Assembly (NCBI GenBank): GCA_002309855.1
Contig: DBYD01000035.1
Span: 9,054-73,053 of the forward strand
Source: Bacteroidales bacterium UBA1195
GTDB lineage: Bacteria > Bacteroidota > Bacteroidia > Bacteroidales > WCHB1-69
Direction of reading: 5' to 3'
DNA length: 64,000 bases
Shown: in pieces, positions 13,357-61,892 of the stretch
How positions within the stretch are numbered: the stretch's first letter is position 1
Layout: every line of letters begins with the position of its first letter
Position numbers and translations under genes: made by a program
The notes under the pieces: model-generated
What the model was told of the DNA's origin: nothing
Databases searched by the model: none
What the model saw: only the letters and a program-made list of their open reading frames with translations

Positions 13357-13782
13357 ATGAGATATATAAGGACAATTCAAGAAATGATTGATGAGCAGGT
13401 ATCTGAAACTATTAGCCGTATCGATCCGATAACAGAAATGGCAGTGCCGTTGAATAAATACAAAGTACGTGTCGATGGATTAAGATTTCATCTTGTCAGG
13501 AACTGGTGCCTATGCAGATATTGCCAGTTGTTTGATACGATGAACATATGTTTCAAGCATTGGATAAATGAATTGGAAGCGGTCATTGAAAAGTTCCTCC
13601 GCCTCCATCTCCATCCGCGAGAAGGCGAACCATTTCTTTCCGAGGTCTTTCAGCGAGGCACCGATGTGATAGACGGAAGAGCAAATTTTTTTTTTTCGTC
13701 CACGCGGAATCTGTGTCGGGATTTTGAATACTTTTGCAGTGTCATAACCGATAATTTGAAACTACTGATACGGCTTGTGTGA
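13357..13782 (+). CDS. Hypothetical small protein, probably chimeric: an AT-rich 5' two-thirds reads through a GC-rich patch containing a T11 tract
   Basis: The ORF is real up to about 13595. The remaining 3' third overlaps the repeat copy at 13595-13636 and an unstarted minus-strand reading frame (..VYHIGASLKDLGKKWFAFSRMEMEAEE..). Confidence 0.3.
   Translation: MRYIRTIQEMIDEQVSETISRIDPITEMAVPLNKYKVRVDGLRFHLVRNWCLCRYCQLFDTMNICFKHWINELEAVIEKFLRLHLHPREGEPFLSEVFQRGTDVIDGRANFFFSSTRNLCRDFEYFCSVITDNLKLLIRLV
13595..13636. repeat. Copy A of an approximately 42-bp imperfect direct repeat (38/42 identical to 14365-14406)
   Basis: The sequence is TCCTCCGCCTCCATCTCCATCCGCGAGAAGGCGAACCATTTC, aligned by eye with copy B. 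Confidence 0.85.
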
Positions 13783-14324: not shown

Positions 14325-14364
14325 CCTTCCAATCTCTTAATCGGATTTGGTCATTTCCATCACC

Positions 14365-14406
14365 TCCTCCGTCCCCATCTCCATCCGTGAGAAGGCGAAG
14401 CATTTC
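14365..14406. repeat. Copy B of the approximately 42-bp imperfect direct repeat, 14 nt from the recF stop
   Basis: The sequence is TCCTCCGTCCCCATCTCCATCCGTGAGAAGGCGAAGCATTTC. It lies at the cargo/host junction. Confidence 0.85.
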
Positions 14407-56438: not shown

Positions 56439-56939
56439 CTACAGCAGTGCCAACGCGATGTGTGCGCAGGCCTCCGCATCGGCAAGCGCGTGATGGTGGT
56501 TCTCAAGGTTATAGCCGCAAGCGGCGGCGACTGTGTGCAGCTGGTGGTTCGGCAGCAGGCGTCCGAAATGGCGGCGCGAGGCGCGGCAGGTGCAATAAAA
56601 TTTGTAATCAGGATAGTCCATCTGATAGACCCTGAACACAGCTTTCAGGCAACCCTCGTCAAAGGGGCTGTTGTGCGCCACTAACGGCAGCCCCTCTATC
56701 AACGGCTCAATCTGCCGCCAAACGTACGGGAACACCGGCGCGTTGTCGGTATCCTCATGCGACAGGCCGTGCACCTGCTGGCAGAACCAGGCGTAATAAT
56801 TGGGTTCGGGCTGTATCAGGCTGTAGAATGTGTCGGTGACAATGCCGTTGCGCACAACAACGATGCCAACGCTGCACACGCTGCACGGATTCCCGTTGGC
56901 CGTCTCGAAATCTATCGCTGCGAAATTGTTCAGCATCAT
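56439..56939 (-). CDS. DEDDh 3'-5' exonuclease (DnaQ/Pol III epsilon-like)
   Basis: The motifs are ExoI AIDFETAN, ExoII VAHNSPFDEGCL and ExoIII HHALADAEAC. It is translationally coupled to the WYL gene by a 4-nt overlap. Confidence 0.85.
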   Translation of the reverse strand: MMLNNFAAIDFETANGNPCSVCSVGIVVVRNGIVTDTFYSLIQPEPNYYAWFCQQVHGLSHEDTDNAPVFPYVWRQIEPLIEGLPLVAHNSPFDEGCLKAVFRVYQMDYPDYKFYCTCRASRRHFGRLLPNHQLHTVAAACGYNLENHHHALADAEACAHIALALL

Positions 56940-57856
56940 TCCCTCCCTTTCCTATACAGCGCGGACATGCCACGGATCTCCTCGGCCATGGACTTACGCA
57001 GCGATAGCGGCTCAAGCACCTCAACGGCGGAACCATGCGAAAGAAGCTCCTGACGGAAATCGAAGGTGGGTTTCAGCCGGTAGGAGAAGAGCGAATAGGT
57101 CTCGTTACGCTCCAACTCCTGCTGCGAGGCGTGCAGCGGCAGCGAACGGAAATAGTTCGCCTGAAACGCCTTAACCTTCAGCACAACCCGCTTCACCTCC
57201 AGCTCATCATCAGCAATGATACCAAAACAGCAGCTGAAAAAATCCTCCGCGTCAAAGTTTTTCGGATACAGGAATGTTTCCGTGGAGATATCCATATTTT
57301 CCATCCGGTCCAACGCAAAAATGCGAAGAGTATGGTTTCCGTATTTTCCAAGCAGGTACCAGCGCCTGCGGAACATCTTAAGGGCATACGGCTCAAAATT
57401 GTAATAATGCACCGCCTCCGAACTCCAATATGGCCTGTAGTCGAACATTATCATGCAGTTGTTCCGCATCGCCTCCAGAATGTCCGAAAGAAATGATTTC
57501 GAGGAGGGCTGCTCCTCCAACAGGATGCGGCTGCGCAACGCACCGCACATGTTGATGCTGTTGTTGACCGAAACCGTCTCCAACATCCATTTCCGGAAAC
57601 CGGACAGATCCTTCATTTCCGCCCTGTCCGCAATGTAATAGGCGTTGTCGGATTTGCGGCAGGCTATCTCCACGCCGAACACATCGGCAATCTGCTCCCG
57701 ATGGTTCTGGAAGGTCCGCCATGCATAGGATTCCCCACCGGACATTTCTGTCCGCTCCCACCTGTCATTTATCTCCGAAAAGGTTATGCCCCTGTCCCCC
57801 TCTTTTGAGACAGTGTCTATCAGCCAGATGTATTTTTTTATCAGTTCCGAGACCAT
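56936..57856 (-). CDS. WYL-domain transcriptional regulator (wHTH-WYL-WCX architecture)
   Basis: It has an N-terminal wHTH-like segment and a RRWYLLGK WYL signature. Confidence 0.75.
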   Translation of the reverse strand: MVSELIKKYIWLIDTVSKEGDRGITFSEINDRWERTEMSGGESYAWRTFQNHREQIADVFGVEIACRKSDNAYYIADRAEMKDLSGFRKWMLETVSVNNSINMCGALRSRILLEEQPSSKSFLSDILEAMRNNCMIMFDYRPYWSSEAVHYYNFEPYALKMFRRRWYLLGKYGNHTLRIFALDRMENMDISTETFLYPKNFDAEDFFSCCFGIIADDELEVKRVVLKVKAFQANYFRSLPLHASQQELERNETYSLFSYRLKPTFDFRQELLSHGSAVEVLEPLSLRKSMAEEIRGMSALYRKGRE

Positions 57857-57898
57857 GATTTGTACCTTTAGTTTTCAAACGCTGCAAAAATAAACAAC

Positions 57899-57923
57899 AA
57901 TTATGCCAAACTATGGCATAATT
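57899..57923. promoter_or_regulatory. Inverted repeat AATTATGCCA-N5-TGGCATAATT upstream of the WYL gene
   Basis: It has 10-bp perfect arms and lies 43 nt upstream of the WYL start. This is a candidate autoregulatory operator. Confidence 0.45.
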
Positions 57924-57993
57924 GCATTATTTCGTGCAGAAAAATGTAATTTTTCACATTTTTCCGCACATAATCCGCAACAATAATCCGTCT

Positions 57994-58066
57994 AAAAACA
58001 CAATTTTTCGGAATTGTATTCCGAATTTTTTTATAATTTTCGGAATTGTATTCCGAATTTTCGTAT
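57994..58066. repeat. 73-bp perfect direct repeat, copy 1 (contains two TTCGGAATTGTATTCCGAA palindromes)
   Basis: It is identical base-for-base to 58982-59054. Confidence 0.95.
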
Positions 58067-58076
58067 TATTCATCCT

Positions 58077-58104
58077 GTAGAGACGGTGCATGCACCGTCT
58101 CTAC
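58077..58104. repeat. REP-like 28-bp perfect palindrome GTAGAGACGGTGCATGCACCGTCTCTAC, copy 1, followed by half-sites GCACCGTCTCTAC / TCACCGTCTCCAC
   Basis: Read directly from the sequence. It lies 3' of the RAYT gene. Confidence 0.9.
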
Positions 58105-58172
58105 ATTATTATTTTGCACCGTCTCTACATTGTTTTCGTCACCGTCTCCACATCGGATACATATCCTTGGTT

Positions 58173-58829
58173 TTATTCATCTACCCATTGTAACACATTG
58201 TTTTTAATATATTGTGCAATGTATTTCATTTCGGTTTCATTTCGTATTATATGGTCATGGAATCGTGTTTGCCACGCAAATGGGATTTTATTTTTGTTTG
58301 CGTATCTTGTCACTGCGGATTTGAAATTACCAATGGAAAACGACAATTTGTTTTTCTGCCGGGATATGTATTGCATCTGTTGGTTTACAAATTCATTTTT
58401 CCAACGGTTTGTTAAAACGTTCCGTTTATTTTGTTTTCCATTTATTGCCTTATTATAAATATAATCCGCACCACGTAGAGACGGTGCATGCACCGTCTCT
58501 ACATTATTATTTTGCACCGTCTCCACAACATCACCGAAACCACCTTGTACGACATCTGCATGAACAAAAACGACCATATGAATATGGTCCGGCATAACAA
58601 CAAACAATGGCACATCCGCATAACGATTGTGTTGTTTCATACATCCGATACATTGCTCCGCATATTTTCCCAATTCTGACAACTGCATTTCACCATCAGC
58701 AATCTCACCGAAATAATGCTGGCGAAACTGTGTACAAATGGTGACAAAATACGCCCCACCATTATAATCGTGCCATCCTGCACGTGCCGAAGGGATACGG
58801 TATCTGTCATAAAACCTGTTATCTGACAT
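58173..58829 (-). CDS. REP-associated tyrosine transposase (RAYT; IS200/IS605-like HUH Y1 enzyme)
   Basis: The HUH motif is MPDHIHMVV. The C-terminal WQTRFHDHIIRNETEMKYIAQYIKNN carries the catalytic-Tyr helix. Three REP-like palindromes are associated with the gene. Confidence 0.75.
   Translation of the reverse strand: MSDNRFYDRYRIPSARAGWHDYNGGAYFVTICTQFRQHYFGEIADGEMQLSELGKYAEQCIGCMKQHNRYADVPLFVVMPDHIHMVVFVHADVVQGGFGDVVETVQNNNVETVHAPSLRGADYIYNKAINGKQNKRNVLTNRWKNEFVNQQMQYISRQKNKLSFSIGNFKSAVTRYANKNKIPFAWQTRFHDHIIRNETEMKYIAQYIKNNVLQWVDE
58475..58502. repeat. REP-like 28-bp palindrome, copy 2, inside the RAYT coding sequence
   Basis: The stretch 58475-58526 matches 58077-58128 with 1 mismatch in 52 nt. 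It translates in frame as ..VVETVQNNNVETVHAPSLRG.. Confidence 0.9.
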
Positions 58830-58913
58830 AAATAAAATTCATTTTGTTCATTTAATATATTAACGGAGGATTGTCCGTTATAATGTATTAACGTTGGTAT
58901 TATTTGCGATATT

Positions 58914-58941
58914 GTAGAGACGGTGCATGCACCGTCTCTAC
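58914..58941. repeat. REP-like 28-bp palindrome, copy 3 (5' of the RAYT gene)
   Basis: The palindrome is identical to the other copies. It is followed by the degenerate half-site GCACCGTCCATAC. Confidence 0.9.
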
Positions 58942-58981
58942 AATATTTCCGGCACCGTCCATACAACATCCGTGACGGAAC

Positions 58982-59054
58982 AAAAACACAATTTTTCGGA
59001 ATTGTATTCCGAATTTTTTTATAATTTTCGGAATTGTATTCCGAATTTTCGTAT
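58982..59054. repeat. 73-bp perfect direct repeat, copy 2; its 3' end merges into the TAtaTTTG -7 box of the downstream ATPase promoter
   Basis: It is identical to 57994-58066. Confidence 0.95.
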
Positions 59055-59075
59055 ATTTGCAAAAACAAAACAGAG

Positions 59076-60233
59076 ATGATTCAACGGTTATTGGACAAAG
59101 ATAGACTTTTGGAAGACAGCACCTTCCTGTTTGGTGCGAGGCAGACTGGGAAATCCACGCTGCTGTTGGAACTGTTTCCTGATGCGCATTTTTATGATTT
59201 ATTGGAGAGCAACACCTTTGAACGGCTCCAGAGAAATCCCTCCCTGTTAAGGCAGGATTTGGAGATGTGCGAACCCGACACGCTGGTCATCATTGACGAG
59301 GTGCAGTCTCTTCCCATACTGCTGAACGAGGTGCAATGGCTGATGGTACGCAAAGGGCTCCGGTTCATTTTGAGCGGCTCAAGCGCACGCAAACTCAAAC
59401 GCGGAGGGGCCAACATGCTTGGAGGCAGGGCGTTGCAAACCAACCTCTACCCTCTTACAAGCGCAGAGGTTCCCGACTTCGACATTGTAAGGGCTGTAAA
59501 TCAGGGCATGATTCCAAGGCATTATCTGGCCGATTCAAGAAAATACTGGCAGATGCTGCAGGCTTACGTGGCGGTTTATCTGCGCGAAGAGATTAAGGCG
59601 GAGGCGCTGGTGCGCAACCTCTCAACCTTCACCCGTTTTCTGGAGGCCGCCGCACTTACCAACGGCGAGATGGTCAATTTCAGCAACATTGCGCAGGATT
59701 GCGGAGTGGACTCGAAAACCGTTGCCGGATATTTCTCCATTCTGGAGGAGACGCTAATCGGCCACATGATTCCCGCGTTTTCAAAAACAGTGAAACGCAA
59801 GCTGCGCCAGGCTCCACGCTTCTATTATTTTGATGTTGCTGTCACTAACTACCTGCTTGGCCGACGCTCAATGGTTCCCGGTTCCGCCGATTTCGGCCAT
59901 GCATTCGAGCATTTTGTGATTCAGGAAATCATTGCATATTTGGGTTATCACCGGATGACAAACGCACTCTCCTATTGGCATACATACAATGATTATGAAG
60001 TGGATGCGATATTAGGGGATGCACAAGTCGCCATAGAGATCAAATCAGCGGATGAGGTGCAGTCCCGACATCTGCACGGGTTGAAAGCCTTCAAGGAGGA
60101 GCATCCGCAAGCCCGTCTGATAGCGGTTTCACTTGACACGAACCCACGGCGGACCAACAACGTTGAAGTCTGGCCGGTCAAGGCGTTCCTGGAACAGCTG
60201 TGGGCCGGAAAGATTTGGACCGAAAACCTGTGA
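59076..60233 (+). CDS. Orphan ATP-binding protein (AAA_14 + DUF4143 type)
   Basis: It has Walker A GARQTGKSTLL and Walker B VIIDEVQ, plus a C-terminal PD-(D/E)xK-like DUF4143 segment (..EVDAIL...IEIK). The start is ATG 59076 (MIQRLL). Confidence 0.7.
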   Translation: MIQRLLDKDRLLEDSTFLFGARQTGKSTLLLELFPDAHFYDLLESNTFERLQRNPSLLRQDLEMCEPDTLVIIDEVQSLPILLNEVQWLMVRKGLRFILSGSSARKLKRGGANMLGGRALQTNLYPLTSAEVPDFDIVRAVNQGMIPRHYLADSRKYWQMLQAYVAVYLREEIKAEALVRNLSTFTRFLEAAALTNGEMVNFSNIAQDCGVDSKTVAGYFSILEETLIGHMIPAFSKTVKRKLRQAPRFYYFDVAVTNYLLGRRSMVPGSADFGHAFEHFVIQEIIAYLGYHRMTNALSYWHTYNDYEVDAILGDAQVAIEIKSADEVQSRHLHGLKAFKEEHPQARLIAVSLDTNPRRTNNVEVWPVKAFLEQLWAGKIWTENL

Positions 60234-60282: not shown

Positions 60283-61131
60283 TCATTTTTTTACGTTCCA
60301 CGAAATGCAGTTCAATGCGCCACCTTTTCTGACGGCTTCAAGAGCAAAAATGCCTACGATATCGCAACATGGCAAAGCTTTTTCGATTTGCTCCAACGCC
60401 TGACAGTCCTCCTCCGTCCCCAACTGCGGCACAAGAACCAACTTTCCGACCTGCAGGAAATTGATGTAGCACCAACTTCGCTCACGATGTCGTTTTACTT
60501 TGTATTTCAACGTAATGACTTCAAACTTTTTATCCAAAACCTTTCGGAAACGGTAGTAATAATGCCTTGAAAAATCCTGATAGTTTGTCAGCAGGATTTT
60601 CCCTTCGCCAACATAGTGTAAAATGCCATCGCTATGGCCATACCTTTCACCGTCCCACGGCAAGAACAGGATGTCGCACCGGAAGGCGTCGCGCAGAATC
60701 CTCTCCACTTCGGCAGTGCTTTTGTCATTGTTTTCCACAAAGATCTTGTCTGTCATCACAACGGTGTCGCCGCACTTCACCACGTTGCCGCCGTCAAGAA
60801 CGAGGTCAATGTCTTTGCGGAATTTGAGCATACCGCCAAAATGGTTTTCTTCCGCAAGGAACACCTTTTCGGGGTCGGTTTGAAGACGACGATGATAAGC
60901 CGTATCTTGCAGATAATCTGGTGTATATTTGTAAAACACCAAACGCTCTTCTTCAACCTGTATGGGCATGAAGTCGCGACACCAGATGTCTTTAGTTTCA
61001 GAAAGATAGCTGTACGGAATGCCGTGGTTCCGCAACACTTCCGTGATTTGCGCATTCAGCTGAGGGCATTTCTCCGGCAACATACCGGAGAAATAGACGG
61101 TGTTGGTGAGGGAATCGGTGGTCATTTGCAA
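60283..61131 (-). CDS. Pentein-fold guanidino-group-modifying enzyme (short agmatine-deiminase/PAD_porph-like, 282 aa)
   Basis: The motifs are IWCRDFMP, LDGGNVV, GHSDGILHYV, CYINFLQVGKLVLVP and C-terminal GGALNCISW with a candidate nucleophile Cys. It overlaps the upstream gene by 10 nt. Confidence 0.65.
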   Translation of the reverse strand: MQMTTDSLTNTVYFSGMLPEKCPQLNAQITEVLRNHGIPYSYLSETKDIWCRDFMPIQVEEERLVFYKYTPDYLQDTAYHRRLQTDPEKVFLAEENHFGGMLKFRKDIDLVLDGGNVVKCGDTVVMTDKIFVENNDKSTAEVERILRDAFRCDILFLPWDGERYGHSDGILHYVGEGKILLTNYQDFSRHYYYRFRKVLDKKFEVITLKYKVKRHRERSWCYINFLQVGKLVLVPQLGTEEDCQALEQIEKALPCCDIVGIFALEAVRKGGALNCISWNVKK

Positions 61132-61775
61132 AATCTTTTATAATACCTTGTTATACTCTTTGGCGTTTTTTTTACATAATCCCAAGTTGCATTTTCAAAT
61201 TTTTCTTTACAATTATCTTTGCATGTATATTTTTCAAATAATTTCTGATCATAAAAACACAATGGCACATCTTTTAGATCTTTTTCTTTATATGTAATTC
61301 CATATCTTTCCATCGGATTTTTACAGAGTTCACTTCCCATATTTCCATTATCTTCTTTTAACTCAAGCATAGCTTTCTGTTCAATACAAACATTCAACAG
61401 CTCAAGCATACATACAGATGGTCCTGTAATATATCTTCCTTGACTATCTTTCAAACTTCGAATCAAAATTCCTCCAAACTTACCATCTGCAAACTTACTA
61501 TCAAAACAAACATCAACACCGCTATAATGAAAGAATAAGGTGCCAGCATCTTTGTTCGTTCGGGGGTAAGTTTTTTCATTCCATTTTTGATTAAAATTGT
61601 CTTTATCATAATAATAAAACTCTATTTCCGCAAAATAATACTTAATTGCGCCACATTCAATGCAGTAGTTTTTAAACAAATCCTCCGCAATTTCTGCGCA
61701 CTTCTTTTGAAATTCATGCGGATCCCCATTTAATCCATCAAATGGATTTGTCAATTTTTCCTTTAATGTTTCCAT
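61122..61775 (-). CDS. AAG/Mpg-fold (3-methyladenine DNA glycosylase-like) protein with a Cys-rich C-terminal extension
   Basis: Three blocks match the Mpg pattern by eye. YYFAEIEFYYYD corresponds to IVETEAY. TYPRTNKDAGTLFFHYSGVDVCFDS corresponds to T.R...pG..YVY..YG...C.N. FGGILIRSL....ITGPSVCMLELL corresponds to avLIRA.eP...GP..l. GC is about 33 percent. Confidence 0.5.
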   Translation of the reverse strand: METLKEKLTNPFDGLNGDPHEFQKKCAEIAEDLFKNYCIECGAIKYYFAEIEFYYYDKDNFNQKWNEKTYPRTNKDAGTLFFHYSGVDVCFDSKFADGKFGGILIRSLKDSQGRYITGPSVCMLELLNVCIEQKAMLELKEDNGNMGSELCKNPMERYGITYKEKDLKDVPLCFYDQKLFEKYTCKDNCKEKFENATWDYVKKTPKSITRYYKRFCK

Positions 61776-61892
61776 AATAACTCATGTTTTAAAATTTTCT
61801 GCAAAGGTACAGCATTTCGGCGAAAACGGAAGGGGAATTTTTGTTAAAATTTGTTAAAATTTTCGAAAAAAGTTATTAATATTCTCCCCCCC

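Follow-up and report, generated by a model that had tools for sequence, protein, structure and literature searches.

The present analysis concerns a 64,000-nucleotide stretch of the genome of Bacteroidales bacterium UBA1195 (the window), located on contig C33 of G000, a metagenome-assembled genome (MAG) of a rumen Bacteroidales bacterium with an assembly of 2.34 Mb that is 90% complete. Three palindromes and a gene for a transposase-like protein found near its right end very probably constitute a REPtron of subclass 2.4 of the TnpA-REP/RAYT family (REP-associated tyrosine transposases), in which cognate double-foot repetitive extragenic palindromes (REPs) are located on the 5' and 3' sides of the gene and within its coding sequence, and which was inserted as a cassette together with a duplication of the 5' region of an adjacent ATPase gene.

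The original prediction, made from the sequence alone, had described three identical palindromes in one orientation, one of them in frame inside the RAYT open reading frame (ORF), and 73-bp direct repeats around the whole unit, and each of these elements was recovered (Table 1); the four checks suggested with that prediction likewise turned out in its support. The 28-nt palindrome GTAGAGACGGTGCATGCACCGTCTCTAC occurs exactly three times and is absent from the rest of the window even with three mismatches, a tolerance at which 0 occurrences are expected in shuffled sequence. All three copies share one orientation because the extra half-sites TGCACCGTCTCYAC, which follow a 10-nt AT spacer, all sit on the plus side. 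The stretch 58475-58526 is identical to 58077-58128 at 51 of 52 positions and lies inside the RAYT ORF, where amino acids 101-120 read VVETVQNNNVETVHAPSLRG (amino acids 102-118, VETVQNNNVETVHAPSL), between the DHIH motif (amino acids 81-84, 58578-58589) and W186-Q187/Y207. The two flanking REPs are GT[AG]G-footed and lie within 1 kb, at 69 nt (58077) and 85 nt (58914) from the ends of the RAYT ORF. Folding of the sequence around the embedded site, as mRNA or as DNA, gave a perfect hairpin of 12-14 bp (z = -4.9), while no Rfam family reached its gathering score between 57700 and 59300, the weak matches to rpsL_ricks and miRNA families reflecting generic hairpin similarity. The two 73-bp repeats are 100% identical, and each carries two 19-bp palindromes TTCGGAATTGTATTCCGAA that are 32 bp apart (58007-58025 and 58039-58057 in the left copy); both the 73-bp repeat and the TTCGGAATTGTATTCCGAA palindrome are unique to this locus in the genome. 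On the plus strand, antisense to the RAYT gene, the REP hairpin followed by ATTATTATTT scores as intrinsic-terminator-like at 58076-58115 and 58475-58512, and 13 such sites were counted in 1.6 kb against 1.5 expected.

The RAYT gene is predicted to encode a Y1/HUH single-strand-DNA nuclease of RAYT type with intact catalytic residues, an assignment based on invariant motifs, an NCBIfam match and structural matches to a model of the protein. Residues H82, H84, W186, Q187 and Y207, the last of which opens the Y motif YIKNNV (amino acids 207-212, 58194-58211), are invariant in an alignment of 30 homologues, which also revealed two conserved half-domains (amino acids 1-89 and approximately 147-218) separated by a hypervariable linker (alignment columns 101-200) composed of REP-derived peptides. 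In an AlphaFold model obtained from this alignment both half-domains are confidently predicted and residues 94-144 are disordered, with the HUH histidines placed on strand E82-89 and Y207 in helix 198-215. The best Foldseek match of the model is 4er8_A, the E. coli TnpA-REP bound to a REP hairpin (E 1.4e-5), followed by the TnpA proteins of IS608, ISDra2 and IS200 (2a6m, 2vju, 2xo6), all with probability 1.0 and target-normalised TM of 0.5-0.6. The NCBIfam family NF047646 (REP_Tyr_transpos) matched in two stretches (E 5.7e-14, 52.2 bits), Pfam gave no match for the RAYT at the default threshold, and no record of the exact protein was found in the contig index.

Confinement of the palindrome to this locus, which the original prediction had named as grounds for its refutation, was not observed, as copies are dispersed through the genome as a REP family. 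It is present at nine exact or near-exact genomic sites, several of which show compensatory changes on both arms, and belongs to a set of 43 double-foot REPs of 25-29 nt in G000 with the form GT[AG]G...C[TC]AC, the feet reading GTAG and CTAC in each of the 43. The outer stem GTAGAGACG/CGTCTCTAC of these REPs is conserved, occurring 37-43 times per strand versus 4-7 times in a reversed-sequence control, and the apical 10-12 nt are variable yet self-complementary. The dispersed copies are perfect palindromes without flanking gene remnants, and the same REP is present in many family- and order-level relatives. In-frame double-foot REPs with the core GCACGGCCGTGC were also observed inside two unrelated ORFs of 1048 and 904 amino acids (C19:8062-8089 and C42:4493-4520), and no RAYT paralogue with this core was detected in the 90%-complete G000 assembly.

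Five full-length RAYT paralogues (on contigs C33, C18, C52, C23 and C55) and one fragment are present in G000, the four paralogues outside the window being 33-41% identical to the window protein at the amino acid level. A 28-nt double-foot REP is located between the HUH motif and the Tyr in four of the five, each with its own core, namely GGTGCATGCACC in the window gene (C33, read as VETVHAPSL), GCAAAATTTTGC in C18 (VETQNFASL), ACAACGCATGCGTTGT in C23 (VETTHALSL) and GCAATGCATTGC in C52, where it is read in the other open frame as CRDAMHCVST; the third reading frame is shut by the TAG within GTAG. C55 has intact motifs and no in-gene REP. Of the exact REP variants, the three with the most genomic copies (seven, five and four) are the cores embedded in C18, C52 and C33, and 22 of the 43 REPs differ from an embedded core by at most two mismatches. 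In C18, C52 and C23 the in-gene REP is the sole REP at the locus, and the HuH motif of these three paralogues and of most homologues is NH[ILV]H. In C23 (C23:25561-26253) eight tandem copies of a 12-nt unit, AATCGCATTTAC, come after the in-gene REP and encode (SHLQ)x8, another in-frame repeat expansion in the same linker.

Regarding the cassette, comparison with strains lacking it, as the original prediction had proposed, showed whether a single 73-bp copy is ancestral. In four metagenome contigs with an empty site (L079-L082; 89-98% flank identity to the window) the order is the WYL gene, one 73-bp element, immediately thereafter ATTTGCAAAAACAAAACAGAGATG, and an intact ATPase gene, with neither RAYT nor REP. 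Because these cassette-free contigs hold a single copy directly upstream of the ATPase gene, one 73-bp copy is ancestral and represents the native 5' region of the ATPase gene, so that the regulatory region has indeed been duplicated; the occupied allele corresponds to the empty allele plus the 915-bp cassette and a second 73-mer (988 bp in total). The sequence TATATTTG at the end of the right copy fits the Bacteroides -7 consensus, TAnnTTTG, and the left copy is followed by TATTATTC and is without the -7-like box; a scan for sigma-70 promoters, which is ill-suited to Bacteroidetes promoters, showed no enrichment (8 versus 5.5 expected).

TABLE 1. Coordinates of the REPtron cassette, its component repeats and the adjacent genes in the window.
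Feature	Position	Strand	Remarks
WYL/WCX-domain regulator gene	56936..57856	-	Divergent from the ATPase gene across a single 73-bp element in empty-site alleles
Left 73-bp direct repeat	57994..58066		Sole copy in empty-site alleles
REPtron cassette, 915 bp (REP array, RAYT gene, REP)	58067..58981	-	Missing from empty-site contigs L079-L082
REP copy 1, 28-nt perfect double-foot palindrome, 3' of RAYT gene	58077..58104		
Tail of ~24-nt units	58105..58151		10-nt AT-rich spacer and half-site TGCACCGTCTCTAC, then TCACCGTCTCCAC
RAYT/TnpA-REP-like Y1 HUH nuclease gene (predicted), 218 aa	58173..58829	-	
In-gene REP (58475-58502) and one 24-nt unit (58503-58526)	58475..58526		Linker predicted disordered
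REP copy 3, 5' of RAYT gene	58914..58941		Palindrome extends to 38 nt (58909-58946), then degenerate half-site CACCGTCCATAC
Right 73-bp direct repeat	58982..59054		Reads on into ATTTG to give TATATTTG, 17 nt before the ATG of the ATPase gene
AAA_14/DUF4143 ATPase gene, PADLOC candidate defence family PDC-S01	59076..60233	+	Outside the cassette; native 5' region is the duplicated sequence

The junctions are identical in G000, in G004 (a different species of the same genus), and in L083 and L098, and the left junction, CGTAT followed by TATTCATCCT, is present in every occupied allele that covers the left flank. The two 73-mers show no differences in G000; in G004 they differ at three positions yet share a T-to-A change relative to G000, which indicates concerted evolution. 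The right 73-mer of G004, beside the cassette, has the haplotype CA, and its left copy has TG, as in most empty alleles. In L020 the right-hand duplicate is at least 142 bp long and its edge lies at a ATTATTTC microhomology with the REP-array spacer. The number of units in the tail also differs among strains, with approximately six in L098. Across G000, G004 and L083 identity is 98-99.4% for the cassette, non-coding parts included, versus 85.1% for the WYL gene, 93% for the exonuclease gene and 95-96% for the ATPase and PAD genes, and the cassette is therefore either younger than its surroundings or was spread by recombination. The earlier suggestion of a recent duplication or insertion thus stands as regards the event itself, a cassette insertion with duplication in which the cassette is less diverged than its flanks, and "recent" holds in relative terms only; the insertion is found in both G000 and G004, which are separate at species level, as well as in several metagenome contigs. 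Among 152 genomes of the family the orthologue is present in three and missing from 149, and the cassette was detected elsewhere only in G004, in the same context, and in G001, as a decayed remnant with a 394-bp internal deletion (window 58366-58759) in a rearranged neighbourhood, so that these genomes provide no second independent insertion site. The internal deletion in G001 was considered as a REP-mediated event and this was rejected, as there is no REP at its edges.

Some rearrangements around the cassette were also observed. Two occupied alleles, G004 (L021) and L020, have a deletion that starts just past the right 73-mer and runs to approximately 85 nt before the stop codon of the ATPase gene (window 59058-60148), and the gene is intact in G000, L083 and L098 and in those empty alleles that extend far enough (L079 and L081). 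In G001 (L022, C179:1-1819; L023, C64) the WYL gene directly adjoins sequence from window position ~61890, and the RAYT remnant comes after the PAD gene and window 61753-61868; such an order resembles a circular permutation of a segment of approximately 3.9 kb, but could also be a rearrangement or a MAG assembly artefact. Among more distant lineages, RAYT cassettes of Clostridia (L052, L038, L048, L055 and L045), composed of a small membrane ORF, a RAYT gene with an in-gene hairpin and GTAG-footed REPs, are located at the stop codon of a SpoVAC-like gene, and a 100-130-bp copy of the 3' end of that gene is found on the far side of the cassette (L052:893-1012 and 2030-2149); L045 has three SpoVAC-like fragments, one of them beside an insert without RAYT. 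At the four other paralogues of G000 a flanking direct repeat was detected only at C52, where a 54-bp repeat (C52:59263-59316 and 60442-60495, 52/54 identical; approximately 151 bp in G004) brackets the RAYT gene and a HicB-like ORF. Copies of this sequence with 80-85% identity are present at several loci, including window 13592-13638 and 14352-14406, and it may be a conserved multi-copy upstream element and no target duplication; since it belongs to a multi-copy family, the C52 repeat is weak evidence.

Transposition by Y1/HUH enzymes of the IS200/IS605 type makes no target duplication, and the account that we favour for the 73-bp duplication, with about an even chance of being correct, is that duplication and insertion were brought about by host recombination and not by the RAYT, either through homology-facilitated illegitimate recombination of incoming DNA or through unequal crossing-over between alleles with the cassette on either side of the 73-142-bp segment. 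The CA haplotype of the right 73-mer of G004 looks as if this copy had arrived with the cassette, the identity of approximately 99% in the cassette, where the flanks of the same lineages reach 85-96%, indicates that recombination spread it horizontally, and the microhomology at the edge of the L020 duplicate and the SpoVAC-like gene-end duplicates around the Clostridia cassettes, one of which in L045 flanks a RAYT-less insert, are in agreement with such a route. However, no allele that could have served as donor, with the cassette in the alternative position, was found, and as the left junction does not differ among the occupied alleles covering the left flank, only one event is observable.

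Less probably, the empty sites could be secondary losses by recombination between the 73-bp repeats, the cassette being old at this site. Recombination between direct 73-bp repeats would regenerate exactly the empty sequence observed, and both the junctions shared by separate species-level genomes and the concerted evolution of the two 73-bp copies suit a long history at the site. The identity of 98-99% in non-coding parts of the cassette, compared with 85-96% in the flanking genes, is contrary to long residence, and the absence of the orthologue from nearly all genomes of the family also weighs against this reading.

Regarding the in-gene REP, homologous RAYTs were found to carry palindromes at the same linker position, a feature shared by four of the five paralogues and by almost every one of the 120 closest homologues in the database (45-94% identity). 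In nearly all of these homologues one to five REP-derived peptides directly follow the HuH strand, with variants including VETVHAPS(L) (one to five times), VETMCTSSL, VETMHASS, VETCHGASL and VETEHAPSL and, in the other frame, CRDVPWRVST (in a Paludibacteraceae group), RDAPWCVS and RDAPRHVS; a few, such as P0097, have intact motifs and no in-gene REP. The DNA of three homologue loci confirmed that the peptides correspond to real palindromes, and one gene has five REPs at 42-nt spacing. The core type is strongly clustered on a tree of the conserved domains from which the linker was excluded (19 changes versus 36.4 after shuffling, with 0 of 200 shuffles as low) and nonetheless switches several times on that tree. 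The REP copy number evolves faster than the protein, as P0003-P0006 have near-identical domains with 3-5 REP copies and lengths of 209-241 amino acids, and the orthologues in L020, L083 and L098 have one extra 24-nt unit, equivalent to eight additional amino acids (226 versus 218), with flanking arrays that differ too; the orthologues are 4-12 nt apart, for which dN/dS is uninformative. Distant Clostridia homologues have a different hairpin, ACGGGCGGCAGATTGCCGCCCCT, with compensatory apical changes, just after the HUH strand, at nucleotides 214-304 from the match start and mostly at 232-244. The embedded REP is thus real at this locus, as originally proposed, but it is not peculiar to it, being a clade-wide trait that the published account of TnpA-REP subclass 2.4 already describes (PMC6006769). 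Since in-gene REPs are read in either open frame and in variable copy number, it is the DNA hairpin, not the peptide, that persists.

A possible explanation, to which we attach only tentative weight, is that the in-gene REP is a selected functional cis element, serving as a home binding site for autoregulation, as a protected master copy linking enzyme and substrate, or as an antisense terminator. The REP-encoded 9-mer VETVHAPSL is identical in proteins whose catalytic domains are only 51-57% identical and whose remaining linker is unalignable, the in-gene copy is the sole REP at the locus in three paralogues, a different hairpin, itself with compensatory changes, is retained after the HUH strand in very distant homologues from Clostridia, and the hairpin with ATTATTATTT is terminator-like on the antisense (plus) strand. 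Against this, C55 and homologues such as P0097 dispense with the in-gene REP while keeping their motifs intact, and the free variation in position, copy number and frame is what would be expected of a neutral, tolerated repeat that is re-homogenised by the enzyme or by gene conversion.

An improbable extension of this idea is that subclass 2.4 REPtrons are still mobile as whole cassettes which duplicate 50-150 bp of target on landing, leaving the promoter or gene end of the neighbour intact, the in-gene REP being a cis site selected to link enzyme and substrate in the course of these moves. Candidate cases would be this locus, with 73-142 bp, the SpoVAC-like gene end in Clostridia, with 100-130 bp, and possibly C52, with 54-151 bp; a duplication mechanism specific to the RAYT is nevertheless a minority reading because the L045 fragment also flanks a RAYT-less insert. 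If true, it would be the first evidence of tnpA-REP gene mobility and of a non-canonical insertion route linked to a Y1 enzyme. Conservation of the repeat for a functional VETVHAPSL peptide, with the intergenic copies as decayed gene fragments, is very improbable despite the high conservation of the peptide in the closest homologues, and the peptide as the conserved entity was rejected since the palindrome is read in two different frames (CRDVPWRVST and CRDAMHCVST in related lineages), no gene remnants accompany the dispersed copies, whose palindromes are perfect and show compensatory changes in the stem, and the segment is predicted to be disordered.

The subclass 2.4 REPtron that we regard as the best explanation of the locus could have arisen as follows. 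If it works as E. coli TnpA-REP and IS608 TnpA do, the enzyme would bind GTAG-footed hairpins (GTAGAGACGGTGCA...CTAC) extruded on single-stranded DNA and would cut and rejoin beside the hairpin, and this activity on its own REPs may seed and homogenise REP copies, presumably most efficiently near its own gene, which would imply a preference for action in cis. The disordered linker could accept inserts with lengths that are multiples of three in the two frames that avoid the TAG of GTAG, so that REP arrays would persist there, expanding and contracting as an in-frame variable repeat, and the arrays in the linker would be kept homogenised with the genomic consensus. The 915-bp cassette as a whole represents an insertion in the WYL-ATPase intergenic region that was accompanied by a duplication of the ATPase 5' region (73 bp in this genome).

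Several observations weigh against this explanation. The NF047646 score is below the curated (equivalog) cut-off of 80 bits, the Pfam family PF01797 (Y1_Tnp) was only a marginal match in a search to E 10 (E 0.24, 11.9 bits versus a cut-off of 23), the profile being split by the 50-amino-acid linker, and a sequence search of the PDB reached 4er8 only at E 0.97, so that the fold comparison was needed to settle the family. The occurrence of the sole REP inside the gene at C18, C52 and C23 is a poor fit with simple spill-over from flanking arrays, and the 73-142-bp repeat is unexplained by RAYT chemistry because Y1 transposition leaves no target duplication. To our knowledge, no enzyme of subclass 2.4 has been demonstrated to be active. 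In the window protein the HUH motif reads DHIH and not the NH[IFV]H of the published subclass description, and the Y motif, YIKNNV, ends in V and not in the P of YIxNNP (PMC6006769), the consensus of the clade studied here being YIENNV.

RAYTs are textbook domesticated bacterial transposases. No new principle emerges from this locus, as in-gene double-foot REPs are part of the subclass description of 2018 (PMC6006769), and its value is that of an unusually clean natural example, a small genome with several RAYT paralogues of which three embed the cores of the three commonest dispersed variants. The match between cores and paralogues therefore makes an enzyme-substrate specificity code directly testable by core swapping. 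The occupied and empty alleles of a tnpA-REP cassette, which are evidence of the type that the field calls lacking (PMC8266576), are the most useful new datum, and the long duplication beside the cassette, by which a candidate defence ATPase keeps its promoter region, offers a lead on how cassettes are gained without inactivating neighbouring genes.

Regarding the surroundings, the region 56439-60233 resembles a small defence-type neighbourhood, with the ATPase matching PDC-S01 (PADLOC, E 1.7e-54), a 306-amino-acid WYL/WCX regulator and a 166-amino-acid DEDDh exonuclease (PDC-S48). Located between the divergently oriented WYL and ATPase genes, the two 19-bp palindromes resemble an operator pair, and a further 27-nt hairpin, CAATTATGCCAAACTATGGCATAATTG (window 57898-57924), in the WYL-ATPase intergenic region is kept in both empty and occupied alleles and is present as a variant in G001.

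Among known systems, TnpA-REP subclass 2.4 (Bertels group 4), a common type among Cyanobacteria and Bacteroidetes, is the closest, its published traits including the WQ and YIxNNP motifs, a highly variable beta3-alphaC insertion of short DNA repeats and "double foot" REPs, with in-frame REPs inside the tnpA-REP gene between HuH and Y described as "a unique feature" (Quentin, Siguier, Chandler and Fichant, 2018; PMC6006769). The locus is therefore assigned to a known kind on the basis of its in-gene double-foot REPs. It shares with the subclass, as there described, the WQ and YIxNN(P) architecture, the hypervariable beta3-alphaC insertion, the lack of a C-terminal extension, the 5' GT[AG]G and 3' C[TC]AC feet of the REPs, gene-flanking as well as in-frame REPs and a Bacteroidetes host, and differs, apart from the two motifs discussed above, in a HuH-Y distance of approximately 123 amino acids versus a median of 88 (PMC6006769). 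Paralogue-specific cores within one genome, the use of two frames, the 24-nt variable repeat and the occupied and empty alleles with a 73-142-bp duplication appear to go beyond the subclass description in that study (PMC6006769). Di Nocera et al. (2013; PMC3733652) reported intragenic REPs and, for species that harbour several GTAG families, REPtrons that are repeat-specific.

The E. coli TnpA-REP (YafM/RayT) REPtron, represented by the best structural match 4er8, likewise has the HUH motif and Tyr, the GTAG foot of the hairpin and a REP-bordered gene (Ton-Hoang, 2012; Messing, 2012, PMC3479197; Corneloup, 2021, PMC8266576), but belongs to subclass 2.2, has hundreds of imperfect single-foot REPs and no in-gene REP, and its protein is only ~13% identical. 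Corneloup et al. (2021) state that there is "no evidence of tnpAREP mobility" (PMC8266576), whereas presence and absence alleles of the cassette exist at the locus described here. IS200/IS605 elements (IS608, ISDra2) share the Y1 HUH fold and a hairpin-gene-hairpin layout with both hairpins in one orientation, yet are near-identical multicopy elements without target duplication, in contrast to the paralogues of 33-41% identity and the 73-bp duplication in G000. The REPIN-RAYT systems of Pseudomonas similarly have dispersed palindromes tied to a cognate RAYT, with a separate repeat family for each paralogue (Bertels and Rainey, 2011; PMC3116915). REPINs are inverted REP doublets in hundreds of copies, are associated with RAYTs of group 2 or 3 and are not known from within the RAYT gene itself, unlike the 28-nt zero-loop palindromes present here in approximately 43 copies. 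Finally, the Rickettsia RPE and intragenic REPs are also palindromic repeats located in frame in protein loops or linkers (Di Nocera et al., 2013; PMC3733652), but in the REPtron described here the gene that hosts the repeat encodes the very enzyme thought to act on it.

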